Virus record (IMG/VR): IMGVR_UViG_3300029888_000066
DNA: 15,582 bases
Reading direction: 5' to 3' (one strand)
DNA from: a virus
Lineage: Duplodnaviria; Heunggongvirae; Uroviricota; Caudoviricetes
How positions within the stretch are numbered: position 1 is the stretch's first letter; each line of letters starts with the position of its first letter. The notes under the pieces were generated by a model. The model did no database searches, was not told the DNA's origin, and saw only the letters and a program-made list of their open reading frames with translations. Below are positions 2,944-13,075 of this stretch, in pieces. The position numbers and the translations under genes were made by a program.

Positions 2944-3448
2944 ACAGGCTCGTGAGGCTCTGGATGCCTGGATATGTCGACCAGGAATGACACAGGAGCA
3001 GGCGACGATATTAATCACTGAAGCATTCTGGGCTTTGAAAGAGCGCCCGAACATCGATGTTCAGCGTGTCACATATGAAGGTGGCGCGATTGATCAGCGA
3101 GCGCTTGGCGTTAATCGAGTGAAGATATTTGAACGCTGGAAGGCTATCGACACCAGGGATAAGCGTGAAAAGTTCACGGCGCTAGTGCCTGCAATTATGG
3201 AGGCTATCCGGATTAATGATTTCAGGTTGTATCGTAAAATTACTGACGGAAAAAGCATCACGTGCATGATCGCCGGGTTAAACAAAGAATATGGCGATGT
3301 GGTGGAGTCCGGACTGCTTTTTGCTGATCCTGCCGTAGTGGATCGTGAAACTGACGAACTTATAGAAAAAGCAATTGCTTTCAAACTTGCGTATCGACAG
3401 CAATACCAACAAAAAGCTGGATGGAATTATGAGCCTTCTTTTTGCTGA
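2927..3448 (+). CDS. Hypothetical 173-aa protein in the position after cro (possible CII-like or YdaT-like regulator)
   Basis: ATG inside the last codons of dicC (coupled arrangement); product begins MKITPEQAREALDAWICRPG; functional call is by position only. Confidence 0.55.
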   Translation: MKITPEQAREALDAWICRPGMTQEQATILITEAFWALKERPNIDVQRVTYEGGAIDQRALGVNRVKIFERWKAIDTRDKREKFTALVPAIMEAIRINDFRLYRKITDGKSITCMIAGLNKEYGDVVESGLLFADPAVVDRETDELIEKAIAFKLAYRQQYQQKAGWNYEPSFC

Positions 3449-4394
3449 ACGCCCACTGGTTATAAACACGCAGCTGGCAATGAAAATTGGCTTAAACGAA
3501 GCCATTGTTTTGCAACAACTGCACTACTGGTTGAGAGATACCAACTCCGGCATGGAATGTGATGGTGTTCGCTGGATTTATAACACAACGGAACAATGGC
3601 TGGAACAGTTCCCATTCTGGTCAGAGTCAACGTTAAAGCGCGCGTTTGCAAGTCTGAAAACGCTGGGGCTTTTGCGTTGTGAAAAGCTCAATAAATCAAA
3701 GCGCGATATGACCAATTTCTACACGATCAACTATGGGAGCGAGCTTTTAGATGGTGGCAAATTGAGCGAATCCATCGGTTCAAAATGCGCCGCTCCATCA
3801 GGTCAAAATGACACGATGGAAGAGGTCAAAATGAAACGCTCCATTGGTTCAAAACGACCCAATGTCATCGGGTCAAAATGGCCTGATGATCTTACAGAGA
3901 ATACAACAGAGATTACTACAGAGAATAAAAACACTTTTCGTCCGGAAGCTTCGCAACCGGACCCGCAGACGACTGAACAGGATTTTTTAACCCGGAACTC
4001 CGACGCGGTTGTGTTTAGTGCGAAAAAACGCCAGTGGGGTAGCAGGGAGGATTTGGCGTGTGCGCAGTGGATCTGGGGGCGGATCGTGGGTCTCTACGAA
4101 CAGGCAGCCAGTGATGATGGCGAGATCATGCGACCAAAAGAGCCTAACTGGACTGCCTGGGCCAATGACGTGCGCACAATGCGGATGCTGGATGGCAGAA
4201 GCCACAGACAAATTTGCGAAATGTTTGGTCGGGTTCAGCGAGATCCATTCTGGGTAAAAAACATCATGAGCCCGTCAAAGCTCCGCGAAAAATGGGACGA
4301 ACTGGTCATCCGCCTGGGACGTTCACCTGTACAGCGTTGTGTTAATCATATTTCTGAACCGGATACAGAAATTCCGCCTGGTTTCAGAGGATAA
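3429..4394 (+). CDS. Replication initiator, lambda O-like (N-terminal winged-helix-like region, iterons inside the gene)
   Basis: Frame of ORF 3375..4394; preferred start ATG 3429 (MSLLFAERPLVINTQLAMKIGLNEAIV), with TTG 3375 as an alternative; five direct repeats inside the coding sequence as in lambda O/ori. Confidence 0.6.
   Translation: MSLLFAERPLVINTQLAMKIGLNEAIVLQQLHYWLRDTNSGMECDGVRWIYNTTEQWLEQFPFWSESTLKRAFASLKTLGLLRCEKLNKSKRDMTNFYTINYGSELLDGGKLSESIGSKCAAPSGQNDTMEEVKMKRSIGSKRPNVIGSKWPDDLTENTTEITTENKNTFRPEASQPDPQTTEQDFLTRNSDAVVFSAKKRQWGSREDLACAQWIWGRIVGLYEQAASDDGEIMRPKEPNWTAWANDVRTMRMLDGRSHRQICEMFGRVQRDPFWVKNIMSPSKLREKWDELVIRLGRSPVQRCVNHISEPDTEIPPGFRG
3771..3880 (+). repeat. Five iterons (consensus about TCCATCGGTTCAAAATG) at 23-24 bp spacing: candidate phage replication origin
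   Basis: Copies start at 3771, 3794, 3817, 3840 and 3864; they encode the repeated SIGSK/IGSK peptide; followed at 3893-3928 by three TACAGAGAATA-like repeats in an AT-richer stretch. Confidence 0.7.
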
Positions 4395-4434
4395 ATGTTG
4401 ATTTCAGGTCATGAGGTAATTTTAAGGGGGACTT

Positions 4435-4854
4435 GTGGCAAAAGTTTTTACACAAGAAGAGCGGGAAAAAATTAAATGGCAGGTGGTGGAACTCGTGCGC
4501 CAGAGCGGCCGTGAGACGTTACGGCAACTGGAAGCTAAAACAGGTGCGACTAGATATCTGATGAGCGTTCTTGCCAGAGAGCTGGTAGCCAGTGGCGATG
4601 TATACAACTCCGGCTACGGGTTATTCCCCTCTGAACAGGCGCGTAAGGACTGGCAAAACGCCCGCAAAAAACTCTCGAGGGCAAAGGTGAAGAAACCTGC
4701 TGTGGTTGATCCGGACCTTATCTGGTCATCACCTGACGGAGAAATACGTCGCTACGACAGTCGTCTAAACATAATCTGTCGCGAGTGCCGGAAGGCAAGG
4801 AGAAGCAGGCTATTGTTAACACCAAGCTGTAATGTCCCCTTTGAACCATTCTAA
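4435..4854 (+). CDS. Hypothetical 139-aa protein after the O-like gene; 3' end may be altered by the adjacent IS
   Basis: GTG start with AAGGGGG Shine-Dalgarno 6 nt upstream; MAKVFTQEEREKIKWQVVELVRQSGRETLRQLEAKTGATRYL; stop lies only 33 bp before the transposase gene. Confidence 0.5.
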   Translation: MAKVFTQEEREKIKWQVVELVRQSGRETLRQLEAKTGATRYLMSVLARELVASGDVYNSGYGLFPSEQARKDWQNARKKLSRAKVKKPAVVDPDLIWSSPDGEIRRYDSRLNIICRECRKARRSRLLLTPSCNVPFEPF

Positions 4855-6470
4855 AATGTCCCCAGACAATTCTCTGGGGGATTTTTCATGATCAAAGAGA
4901 CTGTTACGATGAGTCATAAGGAACTCCACCGACTTCAGATTATTCAGGAGTCAATTAATCGACATATTACTCAGGAACAAGCTGCGGCACGCATTGGCAT
5001 TTCTATTCGGCAGGTTAAACGTCTGGTGCAACGGTATAGAAATGAAGGGCCTTCTGGTCTGGTTTCCCACCGACGTGGAAAGCGTCCTAATAATTCCTTT
5101 TCTACTGAATTCAGAGCAACAGTAATTTCACTCCTCAAAGGCCGTTACGCTGATTTTGGACCTACGTTTGCGTGCGAAAAATTGCGCGAGATACACGGTT
5201 TATCTTTATCCGTTGAAACTCTCAGAAAGTGGATGATAGAAGAGGGGTTATGGCGTGAACGCCGTCGTAAAATTGCCCGTATATATCAACGCCGCATGCG
5301 ACGACCATCTTACGGTGAACTGATCCAGATTGATGGCTCACCTCATGACTGGTTTGAAAATCGAGGCCCCAGATGTACACTGATCGTTTTCATTGATGAT
5401 GCCACCAGTGCGTTGATGGCGTTGCGTTTTGTGCCTGCTGAAACAACCCGGGCTTACATGGAAACCCTCCGGGGTTACCTTAATGATCATGGCGTACCGC
5501 TCGCTCTCTACTCTGATAGACACAGTATATTCAGGGTAAATAACCCAGAGCGGGAAGGTGAGCTGACCCAGTTCACTCGTGCGATAAAGACACTGGGCAT
5601 CGAGCCAATCCATGCCAACAGCCCGCAGGCAAAAGGGCGGGTAGAGCGCGCCAATCAGACACTACAGGACAGGCTGGTCAAAGAAATGCGGCTTCAGAAT
5701 ATCAGTGATATTGAAACAGCAAATGCATGGTTGCCGACCTTTATTGAAGCCTATAACAAGCGGTTCGCTACGTCGCCTCGTACTACTGATAATGCTCATC
5801 TTGATGTGCACCATTCTGAAGAGGAACTGGGTTATATCTTCAGCCTACAGGCGAAGCGCGTTCTGTCTAAAAATCTCACTTTCCAGTACAAAAGCAGTGC
5901 GTTTCAGGTACGCAGTGAGGGCCGGGGATATCGACTTAGGCATTCGGTTGTTACTGTATGTGAGAACTTTGACGGTGAAATTAACGTTCTGTATGACGGG
6001 AAAGCGCTGGGCTGGGAAAAGTATGTTGATGGCCCGGAGCCTATACCACTGGATGATGAAAAGAGTGTCCATGAACGAGTGGATAATGCCCGTATTGATT
6101 TACGCTCAAAATACTATGTTAAATCTAAAGCTGACCATCCCTGGCTTACGCGCCGAACGCAAAGTCATCAGCAAGTTAAGCCCCCGAAGTTACCTAAAAA
6201 GAAGCCTGATCCCGATAAAATAGATTGAAACCAAGATCGATTCGGTTGAGTGCATATCCATTCATAGGGTAGATTCTTAAGTCGCGTTTCTGGTGTTCAT
6301 TTTCGGGTGGTTTGTTACTTGTTTTACCGGGGATATGCCAGAAACGCGCTGAGTCAGTCTGGGCGGTGCGCGTAATGAGGCGTTATGGTAAATAGCCTAT
6401 GCTAATGTCCGCTAAGAGCAAGAAGCGGAAGTTGGCAGTTTTGTGGACTGTCCCCACAAAAGTGACTACA
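4830..6470 (+). mobile_element. Insertion sequence carrying the DDE transposase; boundaries not resolved
   Basis: Transposase gene plus about 250 bp of non-coding 3' sequence; no clean terminal inverted repeats found by eye, so the ends are approximate. Confidence 0.35.
4888..6228 (+). CDS. DDE (rve-type) transposase, 446 aa, IS481/ISNCY-like with N-terminal HTH
   Basis: MIKETVTMSHKELHRLQIIQESINRHITQEQAAARIGISIRQVKRL (HTH), then an integrase-core pattern with candidate catalytic D (IQIDGSPHDW), D (YSDRHSIF) and E (ERANQTLQDRL); GGGGGA Shine-Dalgarno upstream. Confidence 0.85.
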   Translation: MIKETVTMSHKELHRLQIIQESINRHITQEQAAARIGISIRQVKRLVQRYRNEGPSGLVSHRRGKRPNNSFSTEFRATVISLLKGRYADFGPTFACEKLREIHGLSLSVETLRKWMIEEGLWRERRRKIARIYQRRMRRPSYGELIQIDGSPHDWFENRGPRCTLIVFIDDATSALMALRFVPAETTRAYMETLRGYLNDHGVPLALYSDRHSIFRVNNPEREGELTQFTRAIKTLGIEPIHANSPQAKGRVERANQTLQDRLVKEMRLQNISDIETANAWLPTFIEAYNKRFATSPRTTDNAHLDVHHSEEELGYIFSLQAKRVLSKNLTFQYKSSAFQVRSEGRGYRLRHSVVTVCENFDGEINVLYDGKALGWEKYVDGPEPIPLDDEKSVHERVDNARIDLRSKYYVKSKADHPWLTRRTQSHQQVKPPKLPKKKPDPDKID

Positions 6471-6631
6471 GAAATAGTTGCAATTCATAATTGATCATGG
6501 GTTGTCAGTTAAACTCGTGGCGATTTAAATAGACTAATTGGGAGTGCGTCCATTACTTATATCTTGTAATGTTAACTATCAGAAATGATACAAAGATAAT
6601 ATGTCTTTAAAGAAAAGGCTGATGGCGAAAA

Positions 6632-6650
6632 GTGGCCCGATGAGGGCCAC
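6632..6650 (-). terminator. Candidate intrinsic terminator of flxA
   Basis: Perfect 7-bp stem GTGGCCC/GGGCCAC with a 5-nt loop, 15 bp past the flxA stop, followed on the minus strand by TTTTCGCC. Confidence 0.5.
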
Positions 6651-6664
6651 AATACGGCTGTCAC

Positions 6665-6997
6665 TTAGACGTAAATATCAATGGTGCCAGCGGTATTTGT
6701 ATCGTCTTTTTTCTCTTCTTTTTTATCAGGCTGAACTGTCGCGTCTTTATTCTTTTTCTCTGCCTGCTGCCTTAACAACTGCTCCAGTTGAGCCCTGAGG
6801 CTTTCAATTTGCTTCTGTACCAATGCAGCCATTTCTTTTTTCTGCTGTGTCGTCATCCCCTCTTCCGATGAGATTTTCCCAAGCTTTTCAGTCAGCACCT
6901 GAATTTGTCTTGTGATTTTGGCTATTTCTGATGTTCCTTCCGGGGCGGAGTTGTTTGAAATAACGGTTGAGGTATTTCCCTGAATTGTGACAGACAT
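6665..6997 (-). CDS. flxA: FlxA (flagellar-regulon prophage protein), 110 aa
   Basis: Translation MSVTIQGNTSTVISNNSAPEGTSEIAKITRQIQVLTEKLGK..., recognised as FlxA; AGGAG Shine-Dalgarno upstream. Confidence 0.85.
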   Translation of the reverse strand: MSVTIQGNTSTVISNNSAPEGTSEIAKITRQIQVLTEKLGKISSEEGMTTQQKKEMAALVQKQIESLRAQLEQLLRQQAEKKNKDATVQPDKKEEKKDDTNTAGTIDIYV

Positions 6998-7020
6998 AGA
7001 TTTCTCCTTTTAAAAAAGCA

Positions 7021-7047
7021 CTATCGGCATGCACAAAAAAATCTTTA
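7021..7047 (-). promoter_or_regulatory. Sigma-28 (FliA) promoter for flxA
   Basis: On the minus strand, TAAAGA then a spacer then GCCGATAG, i.e. TAAA-N15-GCCGATA, matching the FliA consensus TAAA-N15-GCCGATAA; about 25-50 nt upstream of the flxA ATG. Confidence 0.6.
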
Positions 7048-7199
7048 ATCGTATTTCTTGTGTCATTAATTGTTTGATGTTCAGATTGTTTTCCTCGCGG
7101 GCTGGCGCGCCTCAGAAAGTAAAGCTTGTTGACAGGGGTAAACGTTCGGCAATAATTTTCTGCCGCATGCGGGTGTTGCATAAAACGTGCTACGTTCCT

Positions 7200-7505
7200 T
7201 TATCGACAGGTCAGGTCACCGCTCACCCGCCGACGAGAAAGCAACACTGACATGCTAAAGCAAAAAATAGATGAATAAGTTGAGTTGTGCATATGTAGCC
7301 TGACCGTCACAAAGTATATGGTGTCTGTACCAGTAAGATGATGGCCGGACTCTTTAAAAGCGAGCTGACCTGCACAATACAGGATGGACTTAGCAATGGC
7401 TGCTCCTGGCACAAAGCGGACAGTGATCACCGTTCTTACGACTACTTTCTGACTTCCTTCGTGACTTGCCCTAAGCATGTTGTAGTGCGATACTTGTAAT
7501 GACAT
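7200..7505 (-). CDS. YdfV-like ORF, 101 aa (position between flxA and relB)
   Basis: ORF of the expected length and position; no convincing ribosome-binding site seen; overlaps the relBE promoter region, so may not be translated. Confidence 0.35.
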   Translation of the reverse strand: MSLQVSHYNMLRASHEGSQKVVVRTVITVRFVPGAAIAKSILYCAGQLAFKESGHHLTGTDTIYFVTVRLHMHNSTYSSIFCFSMSVLLSRRRVSGDLTCR

Positions 7506-7518
7506 TTGTAATTACAAG
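7466..7518 (+). promoter_or_regulatory. relBE promoter with relO-type operator
   Basis: TTGCCC, 17-nt spacer, GATACT, overlapping the palindromic CTTGTAATGACATTTGTAATTACAAG immediately upstream of relB. Confidence 0.6.
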
Positions 7519-7529
7519 AGGTGTAAGAC

Positions 7530-7769
7530 ATGGGTAGCATTAACCTGCGTATTGACGATGAACTTAAAGCGCGTTCTTACGCCGCGCTTGAAAAAATGGG
7601 TGTAACTCCTTCTGAAGCGCTTCGTCTCATGCTCGAGTATATCGCTGACAATGAACGCTTGCCGTTCAAACAGACACTCCTGAGTGATGAAGATGCTGAA
7701 CTTGTGGAGATAGTGAAAGAACGGCTTCGTAATCCTAAGCCAGTACGTGTGACGCTGGATGAACTCTGA
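7530..7769 (+). CDS. relB: Antitoxin RelB, 79 aa
   Basis: Translation MGSINLRIDDELKARSYAALEKMGVTPSEALRLMLEYIADNERLPFKQTLLSDEDAELVEIVKERLRNPKPVRVTLDEL, recognised as RelB. Confidence 0.9.
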   Translation: MGSINLRIDDELKARSYAALEKMGVTPSEALRLMLEYIADNERLPFKQTLLSDEDAELVEIVKERLRNPKPVRVTLDEL

Positions 7770-8056
7770 TGGCGTATTTTCTGGATTTTGACGAGCGGGC
7801 ACTAAAGGAATGGCGAAAGCTGGGCTCGACGGTACGTGAACAGTTGAAAAAGAAGCTGGTTGAAGTACTTGAGTCACCCCGGATTGAAGCAAACAAGCTC
7901 CGTGGTATGCCTGATTGTTACAAGATTAAGCTCCGGTCTTCAGGCTATCGCCTTGTATACCAGGTTATAGACGAGAAAGTTGTCGTTTTCGTGATTTCTG
8001 TTGGGAAAAGAGAACGCTCGGAAGTATATAGCGAGGCGGTCAAACGCATTCTCTGA
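7769..8056 (+). CDS. relE: mRNA interferase toxin RelE, 95 aa
   Basis: Start overlaps the relB stop (ATGA-type coupling); translation MAYFLDFDERALKEWRKLGSTVREQLKKKLVEVLESPRIEANKLRGMPDCYKIKLR..., recognised as RelE. Confidence 0.9.
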   Translation: MAYFLDFDERALKEWRKLGSTVREQLKKKLVEVLESPRIEANKLRGMPDCYKIKLRSSGYRLVYQVIDEKVVVFVISVGKRERSEVYSEAVKRIL

Positions 8057-8127
8057 ACCAAAGCATGACATCTCTGTTTCGCACCGAAGGTGACACTTCT
8101 GCTTTGCGTTGACAGGAGAAGCAGGCT

Positions 8128-8283
8128 ATGAAGCAGCAAAAGGCGATGTTAATCGCCCTGATCGTCATCTGTTTAACCGTCATAGTGACGGCACTGGTAA
8201 CGAGGAAAGACCTCTGCGAGGTACGAATCCGAACCGGCCAGACGGAGGTCGCTGTCTTCACAGCTTACGAACCTGAGGAGTAA
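8128..8283 (+). CDS. hokD: Hok-family membrane toxin HokD (RelF), 51 aa
   Basis: Below the 60-aa cutoff of the ORF track; ATG 8128 with GGAGAAGCAGG upstream; translation MKQQKAMLIALIVICLTVIVTALVTRKDLCEVRIRTGQTEVAVFTAYEPEE. Confidence 0.85.
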   Translation: MKQQKAMLIALIVICLTVIVTALVTRKDLCEVRIRTGQTEVAVFTAYEPEE

Positions 8284-11547: not shown

Positions 11548-11847
11548 AAAAATTCCTTAATACTGATAACTTGGCGCACTATACACACGTTCCTGAAGAA
11601 AGCTATAGTTTTTTGATGGGGTTGAAGATGGCTGGATGTCTAAAATAAACATTGCTTCATATGTTCAACTATGCGTTAATGATTGCGTCGGTTTGAAGAA
11701 CAGACGATATACGAAGTAGTTTACTAAAGCAGTTCTCATTTCAGGTGTTATTCACTTATTCCTTCTTTGAGTCTCTCCAATTAAGTACGAAGTCGTTTCT
11801 GTTATGCAAACCATTTATGCCGAAAGGCTCAAGTTAAGGAATGTAGA

Positions 11848-12063
11848 ATGTCAAATAAAATGACTGGTTTAGTAAAATGGTTTAACGCTGATAAAGGTTT
11901 CGGCTTTATTTCTCCTGTTGATGGTAGTAAAGATGTGTTTGTGCATTTTTCTGCGATTCAGAATGATAATTATCGAACCTTATTTGAAGGTCAAAAGGTT
12001 ACCTTCTCTATAGAGAGTGGTGCTAAAGGTCCTGCAGCAGCAAATGTCATCATTACTGATTAA
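11848..12063 (+). CDS. cspB: Cold-shock protein CspB, 71 aa
   Basis: Translation [71 protein letters not shown]; long 5' leader (about 300 nt) typical of csp genes. Confidence 0.9.
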
Positions 12064-12334
12064 AATTCATCGCTCGTCTGTATACGATAACGAAGAAGGC
12101 TGATGCCTGAGTAGAGATACGGACAGAGTAGTGAATATTGGATCTCTTTAATAAAAAGTAAGGAGGTCCAATACATGAAACAATGGCTAGCATATTTGGC
12201 AAAATCTTAATCAGGAAAAGTATGCTAACCATTGTGGTGAAGTGCAGGTTTGCTGCATGAATAGTTTTACAGCAGAAGCTAACTGCTGGCATGGCAAAAC
12301 AAAGTGCGTAAGTGGATGACTCCCACAAAAAGCA

Positions 12335-13075
12335 CCACAATCTCAAACCCGCTCAGGCGGGTTTTTTATTGTGCACAGAAAACCCCCAGCTAGGCTGGGG
12401 GTTCCGGAAAGCTTTCAGCTTTAAGCCAGTTATTAAAACCCCTTTTGATTTGTTAAAACACCTTGCGGTCTGGCAACTGCAAGTGTCAAACAAGAAATCA
12501 AAAGGGGGTCCCAATGGGGAACGAAAAGAGCTTAGCGCACACCCGATGGAACTGTAAATATCACATAGTATTTGCGCCAAAATACCGAAGACAGGTGTTC
12601 TACAGAGAGAAGCGTAGAGCAATAGGCTGTATTTTGAGAAAGCTGTGTGAGTGGAAAAGTGTACGGATTCTGGAAGCTGAATGCTGTGCAGATCATATCC
12701 ATATGCTTGTGGAGATCCCGCCCAAAATGAGCGTATCAGGCTTTATGGGATATCTGAAAGGGAAAAGCAGTCTGATGCCTTACGAGCAGTTTGGTGATTT
12801 GAAATTCAAATACAGGAACAGGGAGTTCTGGTGCAGAGGGTATTACGTCGATACGGTGGGTAAGAACACGGCGAAGATACAGGATTACATAAAGCACCAG
12901 CTTGAAGAGGATAAAATGGGAGAGCAGTTATCGATTCCCTATCCGGGCAGCCCGTTTACGGGCCGTAAGTAACGAAGTTGGATGCAAATGTCAGATCGTG
13001 TGCGCCTGTTAGGGCGCGGCTGGTAAGAGAGCCTTACAGGCGCATTTGAAAAACCTCCGGCTATGCCGGAGGATA
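12335..13075 (+). mobile_element. IS200 (IS200/IS605 family), about 0.7 kb; ends approximate within about 40 bp
   Basis: tnpA preceded by the characteristic left-end structures: terminator-like hairpin 12345-12367, perfect 8-bp hairpin 12383-12401, and a long-range stem (CCCCTTTTGATTT 12439-12451 pairing with AAATCAAAAGGGG 12496-12508) that sequesters the tnpA Shine-Dalgarno. Confidence 0.7.
12514..12972 (+). CDS. tnpA: IS200 transposase TnpA (HUH/Y1 type), 152 aa
   Basis: MGNEKSLAHTRWNCKYHIVFAPKYRRQVFYREKRRAIGCILRKLCEWKSVRILEAECCADHIHMLVEIPPKMSVSGFMGYLKG..., recognised as IS200 TnpA (HxH motif in CADHIHML); track ORF 12463 is an upstream TTG extension. Confidence 0.9.
   Translation: MGNEKSLAHTRWNCKYHIVFAPKYRRQVFYREKRRAIGCILRKLCEWKSVRILEAECCADHIHMLVEIPPKMSVSGFMGYLKGKSSLMPYEQFGDLKFKYRNREFWCRGYYVDTVGKNTAKIQDYIKHQLEEDKMGEQLSIPYPGSPFTGRK

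Follow-up and report, generated by a model that had tools for sequence, protein, structure and literature searches.

Evidence for a relBE-carrying transposon of the IS1202 family inserted at the start of hokD

The 15,582-nucleotide stretch of DNA analysed here (henceforth the window; IMG/VR virus record IMGVR_UViG_3300029888_000066, Caudoviricetes) carries a transposase gene between a truncated open reading frame (ORF) and the genes flxA, ydfV, relB, relE and hokD, and the question that this locus raises is where the mobile DNA served by the transposase begins and ends. An initial annotation, made from the sequence alone, had placed an insertion sequence (IS) with a DDE transposase within positions 4435–6600 and had found no ends for it. 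Framed in that way, as an IS beside a truncated ORF, the locus is ordinary and already annotated. Our comparisons retain the DDE-transposase element, but as only the left module of something longer: positions 4814–8114 very probably represent a single cargo-bearing transposon of 3,301 bp, with its right end at 8114, that belongs to the IS1202 family (ISEsa1-like, long-duplication subgroup) and struck the start of hokD. Its parts follow one another in the order left inverted repeat (IRL) and repeat of its inner portion, transposase gene (tnp), structured spacer, flxA, ydfV, relB, relE, repeat of the inner portion of the right inverted repeat (IRR), and IRR. With flxA, ydfV, relB and relE between IRL and IRR, it is not an insertion sequence in the strict sense, which admits no passenger genes.

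The left end could be located by comparison of the window with 25 related loci: flanking sequences are unrelated up to position 4814, where TGTTAAC forms a boundary common to about 25 loci. The right end was traced with the help of an uninterrupted hok leader, described below. The IRR lies 1.5 kb past the region first annotated, directly after relE, and GGAGAAGCAGGCTATG then follows. The tips of the two repeats read TGT...ACA and fit the imperfect inverted repeats (about 22–29 bp) of the IS1202 family, and the consensus of the right one (...TTTGCGTTGACA) is also found in compact, multi-copy relatives of about 1.45 kb from Hahella, Chromatiales and Rhabdochlamydiaceae. The statement that terminal inverted repeats are lacking is accurate within 4435–6600 only. 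At the right end the inner IRR is repeated at about 8064–8082 (13 of 19 positions identical, by eye), as the inner IRL is on the left; such repeats of the inner terminal inverted repeat (TIR) are a described feature of the IS1202 family (PMC10132070), and the transposase would bind to them. Motifs of the same inner type (AATGTCCCC / GGTGACA) occur as an internal pair at 6405–6431 and at a further site at 7416–7422. Two partial direct similarities listed earlier do exist, with coordinates shifted by 1–2 nt: TAATGTCC, at 4830 and 6403, is part of the repeated subterminal motif, and TGTCCCCA occurs at 4857 and at 6449, the latter copy lying outside the conserved module and being probably incidental. 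The IRR tip (8109–8114) is also a perfect outward-facing -35 hexamer, TTGACA, which could act as a hybrid promoter into the flank (hokD) or, where an IRR meets an IRL in a circle or tandem, as a junction promoter.

A target-site duplication, suggested as a check in the initial annotation, flanks precisely the interval 4814–8114 and measures 15 bp. Extended by the A of the IRR tip, it becomes AGGAGAAGCAGGCTAT (4798–4813 and 8114–8129), the sole exact direct repeat of at least 16 nt in 4700–8250. Family members gave 26 distinct insertions for comparison, with duplications of 15 bp in 8 cases, 16 bp in 16 and 17 bp in 2. The uninterrupted site is preserved in Escherichia coli strain 61, in which the hok leader runs straight into hokD (...GGCAAGGAGAAGCAGGCTATGAAGCAG...) and is followed by rem and a DUF968 gene, the same genes that come after relBE-hokD in the window. 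Empty hok sites match the window from the last bases of the IRR onward, and matches confined to hokD start exactly at 8114 in 18 of 18 such rows among the 25 matches listed. The relE-IRR-hokD junction was present in 1,165 of 5,426 complete E. coli genomes (some match was found in 4,707), and in 781 complete E. coli genomes no less than 80% of the transposase module is preserved.

Table 1. Positions in the window of the transposon, its modules and its immediate surroundings.
Feature	Position	Strand	Basis
Truncated DUF977 gene, 139-aa fusion ORF, GTG start	4435–4854	+	Pfam DUF977, E = 5e-21, profile positions 1–115 of 134
Microhomology GTGCCGGAAG at the DUF977/hokD-leader deletion junction	4785–4794	.	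Three-way alignment with CUVET17-972
19-bp hokD-leader remnant (Shine-Dalgarno region)	4795–4813	+	Rfam RF01794 ends at this junction in relatives
Left target-duplication copy, GGAGAAGCAGGCTAT	4799–4813	+	Exact direct repeat with 8115–8129
IRL, TGTTAACACCAAGCTGTAATGTCCCC	4814–4839	+	Conservation starts here in about 25 loci of differing context; 19/26 match to IRR; family consensus
Second copy of inner IRL, ACCATTCTAAAATGTCCCC, putative second transposase-binding site	4845–4863	+	79% identity to 4821–4839, 24-bp spacing (repeat search)
Terminator-like hairpin and T-run just upstream of tnp start (putative function)	4859–4880	+	Consensus scan only
Transposase gene, 446 aa (439 aa from second ATG at 4909)	4888–6228	+	ORF, domain and motif evidence
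Conserved 3' non-coding part: long hairpin 6283–6348; palindrome ATGTCCGC-N12-GCGGAAG 6405–6431	6229–6433	+	Homology, fold, conservation
Qin-specific cargo: flxA and 3' two-thirds of ydfV	6434–7403	.	No homology to plasmid transposons from 6434 to 7389–7402
flxA	6665–6997	-	FlxA Pfam, E = 2e-14
ydfV ORF, 101 aa, spanning the cargo/right-module boundary	7200–7505	-	ORF, annotation, alignment
Right-end module: relB, relE, inner-IRR repeat, IRR	7404–8114	+	93.5–98.8% identical to right ends of four other elements
relB	7530–7769	+	
relE	7769–8056	+	
IRR, GGTGACACTTCTGCTTTGCGTTGACA	8089–8114	+	19/26 match to IRL; IRR consensus of compact relatives; empty-site matches begin at 8114
Right target-duplication copy, GGAGAAGCAGGCTAT, hokD Shine-Dalgarno through AT of start codon	8115–8129	+	Intact target in E. 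coli strain 61
hokD ORF, cut from its own promoter, mok and sok	8128–8283	+	tblastn, 100% to HokD; annotation

The transposase bears out the DDE assignment given to it at first. The NCBIfam model ISNCY_2 (NF033594) matched with E = 1e-139 and a score of 465.9 against a cutoff of 250, Pfam recognised N-terminal helix-turn-helix domains (HTH_28/29/32/23) and an integrase-type core (rve_3), and a PDB sequence search pointed, marginally, to the core of a retroviral integrase (E = 0.003). Read from the translation, D149, D170/D171, D210, E253 and Q260 supply a DDE triad, an extra DD and a Q at E+7, and hence the motif of the IS1202 family; the length also fits the single large transposase of that family (394–507 aa). 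The ORF is unbroken, with just 3 residue differences from a plasmid-borne copy. Both the transposase and its family are already known and annotated: RefSeq genomes with 99.9% identical DNA label the gene 'IS1202-like element ISEsa1 family transposase', and also annotate the last 49 codons apart as ydfW. In strain A11, the PGAP annotation calls the intact 446-aa ORF 'incomplete, missing C-terminus' and adds a separate ydfW.

ISEsa1 has in common with the window a 439-aa transposase (from the second ATG), the RefSeq family label and a left module of about 1.6 kb, a likeness seen in the published description, in the family label given by PGAP and in the protein length of 439 aa. It is described as 1,609 bp long, with 15/22 inverted repeats, no duplication and no target preference (Harmer and Hall, PMC10132070), whereas here 3,301 bp with cargo lie between the ends, a 15-bp duplication surrounds them and insertion at hok starts is recurrent; duplications appear once the distal IRR is used. 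Within the IS1202 family, ISEsa1 is listed in the supplementary sheet of the ISTde1 subgroup (Siguier et al., bioRxiv 10.1101/2022.12.17.520857). TGT...ACA ends, helix-turn-helix plus DDE, the extra DD, the Q at E+7 and duplications of 15–17 bp, a range that includes the 15 bp found here, are shared with that subgroup, but its members are simple IS of about 1.3–1.7 kb without recognised target specificity, while the element in the window brings toxin-antitoxin genes and belongs to a set with variable cargo.

This set is built of two modules, a left one (4814–6433 in the window) and a right one (about 7404–8114), which recur at 91–99% identity around other cargo. Four elements share the right end, the 12.8-kb L085 and L086, the 5.6-kb L087 and the 2.6-kb L074. 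The copy of 12,843 bp in CP020054.1 carries ncrYCBA, chrBA and other genes, sits in a hok allele with the duplication GGAGAAGAAGGCCAT and has a Hok ORF to the right of its IRR; that of 5,643 bp in OW849180.1 contains three unnamed genes and occupies a different hok allele, again with a Hok ORF right of the IRR (duplication GGAGAAGTAAGCTATG). L074 (2,575 bp), which has the relBE module and an internally deleted tnp, lies at a non-hok site within a 15-bp duplication with two mismatches. A more distant relative (71% identical) of 4,275 bp from Scandinavium hiltneri (L036), also with a 15-bp duplication, holds GrpB-like and hexapeptide acetyltransferase-like genes and a GNAT/RHH-type toxin-antitoxin pair, as named by reading ORF translations without domain search (4568–7020); the pair stands beside the IRR, the position that relBE holds elsewhere. 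K-12 and plasmid pMS7884B have the identical RelE protein accession. The 58-bp right end was found in 892 PLSDB plasmids and is contiguous with a hok gene in at least 557 records, of several hok identity classes. The nickel (ncrABCY) and chromate (chrBA) cluster inside the 12,843-bp version (L085/L086; pMS7884B, CP020054.1) is one common on Klebsiella and Enterobacter plasmids. In the window, the N-terminal third of ydfV is common to the plasmid transposons and the remainder is Qin-specific (boundary about 7404), and ydfV may be a chimeric or spurious ORF.

The left module ends in the palindrome ATGTCCGC-N12-GCGGA[C/A] and the right module opens with ...AAAGCGGACAG, both of them like the inner-repeat motif. 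AAGCGGA[C/A] stands in direct orientation at both cargo boundaries (6423–6431 and 7414–7422 in the window, and likewise in L086, L087 and L074), which, together with boundaries that are identical in four elements of differing cargo, suggests either a defined point of cargo exchange or internal transposase-binding sites.

Variable DNA bounded by a constant transposase module is also found in ISEcp1-type units, in which one left transposase module mobilises variable neighbouring DNA up to a distal right end, with a transposase of another family. By analogy, an ancestral IS might have lost its IRR, of which about 6425–6450 would be a remnant, so that its transposase came to use a distal surrogate. 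This we consider possible but unlikely. It is favoured by a degenerate IRR-like sequence after GCGGAC in the window, L005 and L023 (GCGGACGTTTGGTTGACG; GCGGACATTTAAGTTTTGTCCAC) and by the differing cargo among elements; however, the distal end has the full IRR consensus and an inner repeat to itself, unlike a weak, ad hoc surrogate, and the same 0.7-kb relBE-IRR module recurs with identical boundaries in four elements, for which a fixed two-module backbone is a better fit than repeated read-through capture.

Could the mobile unit instead be a compact ISEsa1 of 1.6 kb, from 4814 to about 6431, which produces no duplication and has 8089–8114 and relBE merely as unrelated neighbours? We find this quite improbable, even though it agrees with the catalogue entry (1,609 bp, TIR 15/22, no duplication detected; PMC10132070) and with the fact that conservation in many enterobacterial copies stops at 6419–6444, where homology to plasmid copies ends as well (the enterobacterial block ends in ...GCGGAC[A], about 6431). 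The corresponding right end within 4435–6600 (...GCGGAAG, 6425–6431) was rejected as a candidate: it matches the IRL at 10 of 22 positions by eye and showed no duplication in any of eight contexts. By contrast, 8089–8114 agrees with the IRL (19/26) and with the IRR consensus of compact relatives, and allele-specific duplications of 15–16 bp flank the long units in three hok loci and at two non-hok sites. A simple insertion should also have left the second half of a hok gene, with its ORF, to the right of 6431. With six Hok proteins as tblastn queries none was found there; the only match was hokD at 8128, which turned attention to 8114. In enterobacteria, the 1.6-kb unit of the catalogue appears to be just the left module of longer elements. 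An IRR was not found in the 3-kb flanks of most of the related genome-contig loci examined, and in a Klebsiella plasmid copy (L084), in which ISKpn38 interrupts the IRL, there was none within 9 kb. The compact 1.45-kb relatives (Hahella, Rhabdochlamydiaceae; L024–L034, L040–L047, L062–L063, L069) are multi-copy and have duplications of 15–17 bp, and L025 comprises two tandem copies within one target.

Some observations do weigh against a single transposon at 4814–8114. The element is single-copy and confined to one locus in E. coli chromosomes, its mobility resting on sequence comparison; the copy in pMS7884B, with a hok ORF on its right, lacks a duplication and is flanked by unrelated sequence on its left, which shows that later rearrangements do occur. 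The conserved 'ISEsa1' block of enterobacteria stops at about 6431, and a compact element ending there may exist or have existed; moreover, window positions 6425–6450 and the equivalent plasmid sequence resemble a decayed IRR. Lastly, the single-transposon reading does not explain how cargo is exchanged among four variants whose module boundaries, both with AGCGGACA, are identical.

The left flank records a second event. As the initial annotation had surmised, the left end of the element falls inside the 139-aa ORF (the IRL starts within it), the ORF stops 33 bp before the ATG of the transposase (4888) and its true C-terminus has been lost: it agrees with an intact DUF977 protein of 140 aa at 120 of 121 residues, beyond which the two diverge. 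The contrary arrangement, with element ends outside an ORF that is full length in IS-free relatives, was not what we found. Replacement of the C-terminus by the IS end, in turn, did not stand, as DUF977 homology stops at 4794/4795, 19 bp before the IRL; megablast matches of IS-free DUF977 genes end at 4792–4799. Codons 1–120 of the fusion ORF are DUF977, codons 121–126 a remnant of the hokD leader and codons 127–139 IRL. In a three-way alignment the window is a deletion derivative with a 10-bp junction microhomology, GTGCCG[G/A]AAG, whereas E. coli CUVET17-972 keeps an intact DUF977 gene and 4.4 kb between the deletion partners. This interval consists of a gene for a methyltransferase, a DUF7167 pseudogene, an insertion of the IS66 family and a hok/sok leader, after which comes the same transposase. 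The Rfam model of the hok/sok leader (RF01794) stops precisely where it meets the IRL, in CUVET17-972 as in seven other loci. The DUF977 junction of the window is shared by 105–106 complete E. coli genomes.

The truncation of DUF977 might instead be due to an adjacent deletion mediated by the IS, or to the IS having landed in the gene itself, and either would explain an IRL located within the ORF and forming its last 13 codons. This is highly unlikely, however, since 19 bp of hok leader, including an intact left duplication copy, separate the break at 4794/4795 from the IRL, the junction has a 10-bp microhomology, and the parental sequences lie 4.4 kb apart in CUVET17-972.

Some features of this flank can be added. 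The IS66-family element of CUVET17-972 (L004, 2078–4414) is ISEc22-like, with tnpA, tnpB and a frameshifted tnpC. In the RefSeq record of strain A11 (L001), PGAP assigns an 'internal stop' to the 139-aa fusion ORF and treats it as a DUF977 pseudogene; the ORF of this strain is uninterrupted and has one amino-acid difference from the window (compare the annotation at L001 6610–7659 and 7780–7929). The 339-aa ORF at 3375–4394, assigned initially to a replication module, was matched by neither Pfam nor NCBIfam at E <= 0.001 and is hypothetical in RefSeq.

The comparisons show both ends of the element, its target duplication, an unoccupied site, the two-module structure and two deletions (here and in K-12), and the following course of events is proposed. 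The whole 3,301-bp unit would have transposed into a prophage hokD locus, at its translation-initiation region, duplicating 15 bp from the Shine-Dalgarno GGAG through the AT of the ATG. This would have cut hokD off from its promoter as well as from mok and sok, leaving it behind relBE, in what is known as the 'relBEF' arrangement. Later, in the lineage of the window strain, a microhomology deletion joined DUF977 codon 120/121 to the final 19 bp of hok leader, and the 139-aa fusion ORF running into the IRL is its outcome.

Insertions at positions equivalent to that in hokD recur. IRL or IRR adjoins hok start regions in at least nine distinct hok alleles, and at the left junctions at least nine hok leaders end ...AT/TGT or ...ATG/TGT (the slash marks the junction). 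In one locus (L019) the element is reversed within the same 15-bp hok window, and two others (L020 and L048) have head-to-tail IRR-10 bp-IRL junctions at a hok-like site. An origin of the 15-bp repeat by recombination between two hok loci, for instance of a plasmid and a prophage, is hardly credible: hok Shine-Dalgarno regions are similar across loci and a plasmid origin of relBE has been proposed (PMC6379469), but the left copy equals the right copy within each of three loci while differing between them (GCAGGCTAT, GAAGGCCAT, GTAAGCTATG), the repeats abut TGT... and ...ACA precisely, and non-hok insertions have the same geometry.

Family-wide, the triplet directly 5' of the duplication on the IRL side is CAA in 16 and ACA in 5 of 26 insertions, against about 0.4 CAA expected, and the hok sites fit this pattern (GGCAA/GGAG...). 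Alone, the CAA motif is too common to explain the preference for hok; extra recognition or selection would have to contribute. The hok start would be chosen by the transposition machinery rather than by selection. We would extend this, tentatively and with slightly less than even confidence, to a lineage that acts as a site-specific 'addiction-module swapper': recognising the hok translation-initiation region, it would disconnect the type I toxin and install its own type II module beside the IRR. Its target would be CAA plus a Shine-Dalgarno/ATG window of 15–16 bp, possibly helped by the adjacent leader hairpin and used in either orientation, and the modules installed would be relBE, or GNAT-RHH in Scandinavium, along with cargo that varies, for instance resistance to nickel and chromate.

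The structured 3' region, remarked on at the outset, belongs to the conserved transposase module. Its 11-bp perfect inverted repeat was found as described (CGCGTTTCTGG at 6283 and CCAGAAACGCG at 6338, with 44 nt between the arms); by our own arithmetic about 0.02 such repeats are expected by chance in some 370 bp. The region 6229–6440 folds at -74.8 kcal/mol, compared with -58.7 +/- 4.2 for shuffled sequences (z = -3.8; 0 of 200 shuffles as good). Ten relatives, the most distant at about 70% identity, keep the hairpin, its outer 9 bp being invariant; the inner pairs change by G-U/G-C transitions, with a single pair altered on both sides. The hairpin is thus conserved, but its invariant outer 9 bp say nothing on covariation, and it may be either an RNA structure or a DNA palindrome. 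An intrinsic terminator at 6283–6348 was considered and dropped, the consensus scan having made no call there and no T-run following. Rfam at gathering thresholds matched no known RNA to the spacer 3' of tnp in the window, and a scan of the equivalent CUVET17-972 region in E-value mode returned the hok/sok leader only. The hairpin sits between convergent tnp and cargo genes (flxA here, ncrY on plasmids), and the function that we prefer for it, as yet unproven, is that of a transcript-end or insulator element that would shield tnp from convergent cargo transcription.

Several known systems resemble parts of this picture. IS150 and IS186 insertions next to hokA, hokC and hokE, and a 'major rearrangement' at hokD in K-12, were reportedly described by Pedersen and Gerdes in 1999. 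These too are chromosomal hok loci inactivated by mobile DNA; however, IS150 and IS186 sit downstream of the hok ORFs, whereas here a transposon with inverted repeats and a duplication is inserted at the hok start. From the literature, hokD lacks upstream regulatory elements and is co-transcribed with relBE, and an integration of relBE into hokD is noted in a review citing Ramisetty and Santhosh 2016. Within the IS1202 family, the transporter IS (ISKpn21, ISKpn65, ISRel10 and ISShal2) likewise have passenger genes between tnp and an end, but these amount to one extra ORF of unknown function, in contrast to the 1.7–11 kb of cargo including relBE, and the hok target, seen here. ISKpn21, ISKpn65 and ISRel10 belong to the subgroup with 5-bp duplications and ISShal2 to the IS1202 subgroup, with a 29-bp duplication; a dif-like target has been shown for ISKpn21 and, less clearly, for ISKpn65. 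Ends of the Tn7/TnsB type, a comparison made by Harmer and Hall, have TGT...ACA tips and repeated internal binding motifs near both ends as well. Unlike Tn7, the element has no TnsA, TnsC, TnsD or TnsE homologues, a single transposase, and duplications of 15–17 bp instead of 5 bp. In the searchable literature we found no description of inverted repeats and a 15-bp duplication that define a relBE-carrying transposon, of a backbone of two modules around exchangeable cargo, ncr and chr among it, of repeated targeting of hok starts, or of a target duplication for the ISEsa1 group.

The Qin prophage of K-12 is a deletion derivative. The initial annotation had stated that dicC is followed there by integrase fragments and flxA, and fragments are indeed present: the order is dicC, a truncated ydaT-family gene (ydfX) fused at about 6044, ydfW, flxA, ydfV, relBE and hokD, and ydfW is the transposase C-terminus, namely the last 49 codons of tnp. 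The junction has the microhomology GGAG[G/C]CTA (window 3205–3226 and 6036–6050; L088 3440–3560). In the K-12 lineage, a separate microhomology deletion (about 3221 to 6043) took away the IRL and 86% of tnp and left ydfW. Elsewhere in the window, Rfam identified the DicF antisense small RNA (sRNA) at 1011–1062 on the minus strand (RF00039, 76.7 bits) and, above gathering thresholds, a cspA-type thermoregulator 5' untranslated region (11687–12079), the Hfq-binding sRNA STnc490 (12381–12504) and a tRNA gene (14978–15051).

If our reading is right, the textbook chromosomal relBE of K-12 would be transposon cargo, which offers a concrete origin for relBE-hokD ('relBEF') and for the pseudogenes ydfW and ydfX, and the ISEsa1 group would gain a target duplication and a defined target. 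Repeated, position-exact insertion into the ribosome-binding site of a toxin gene would be an unusual target choice. Finally, the same backbone bears ncrABCY and chrBA, and may be a plausible, so far undescribed vehicle for the spread of metal resistance.

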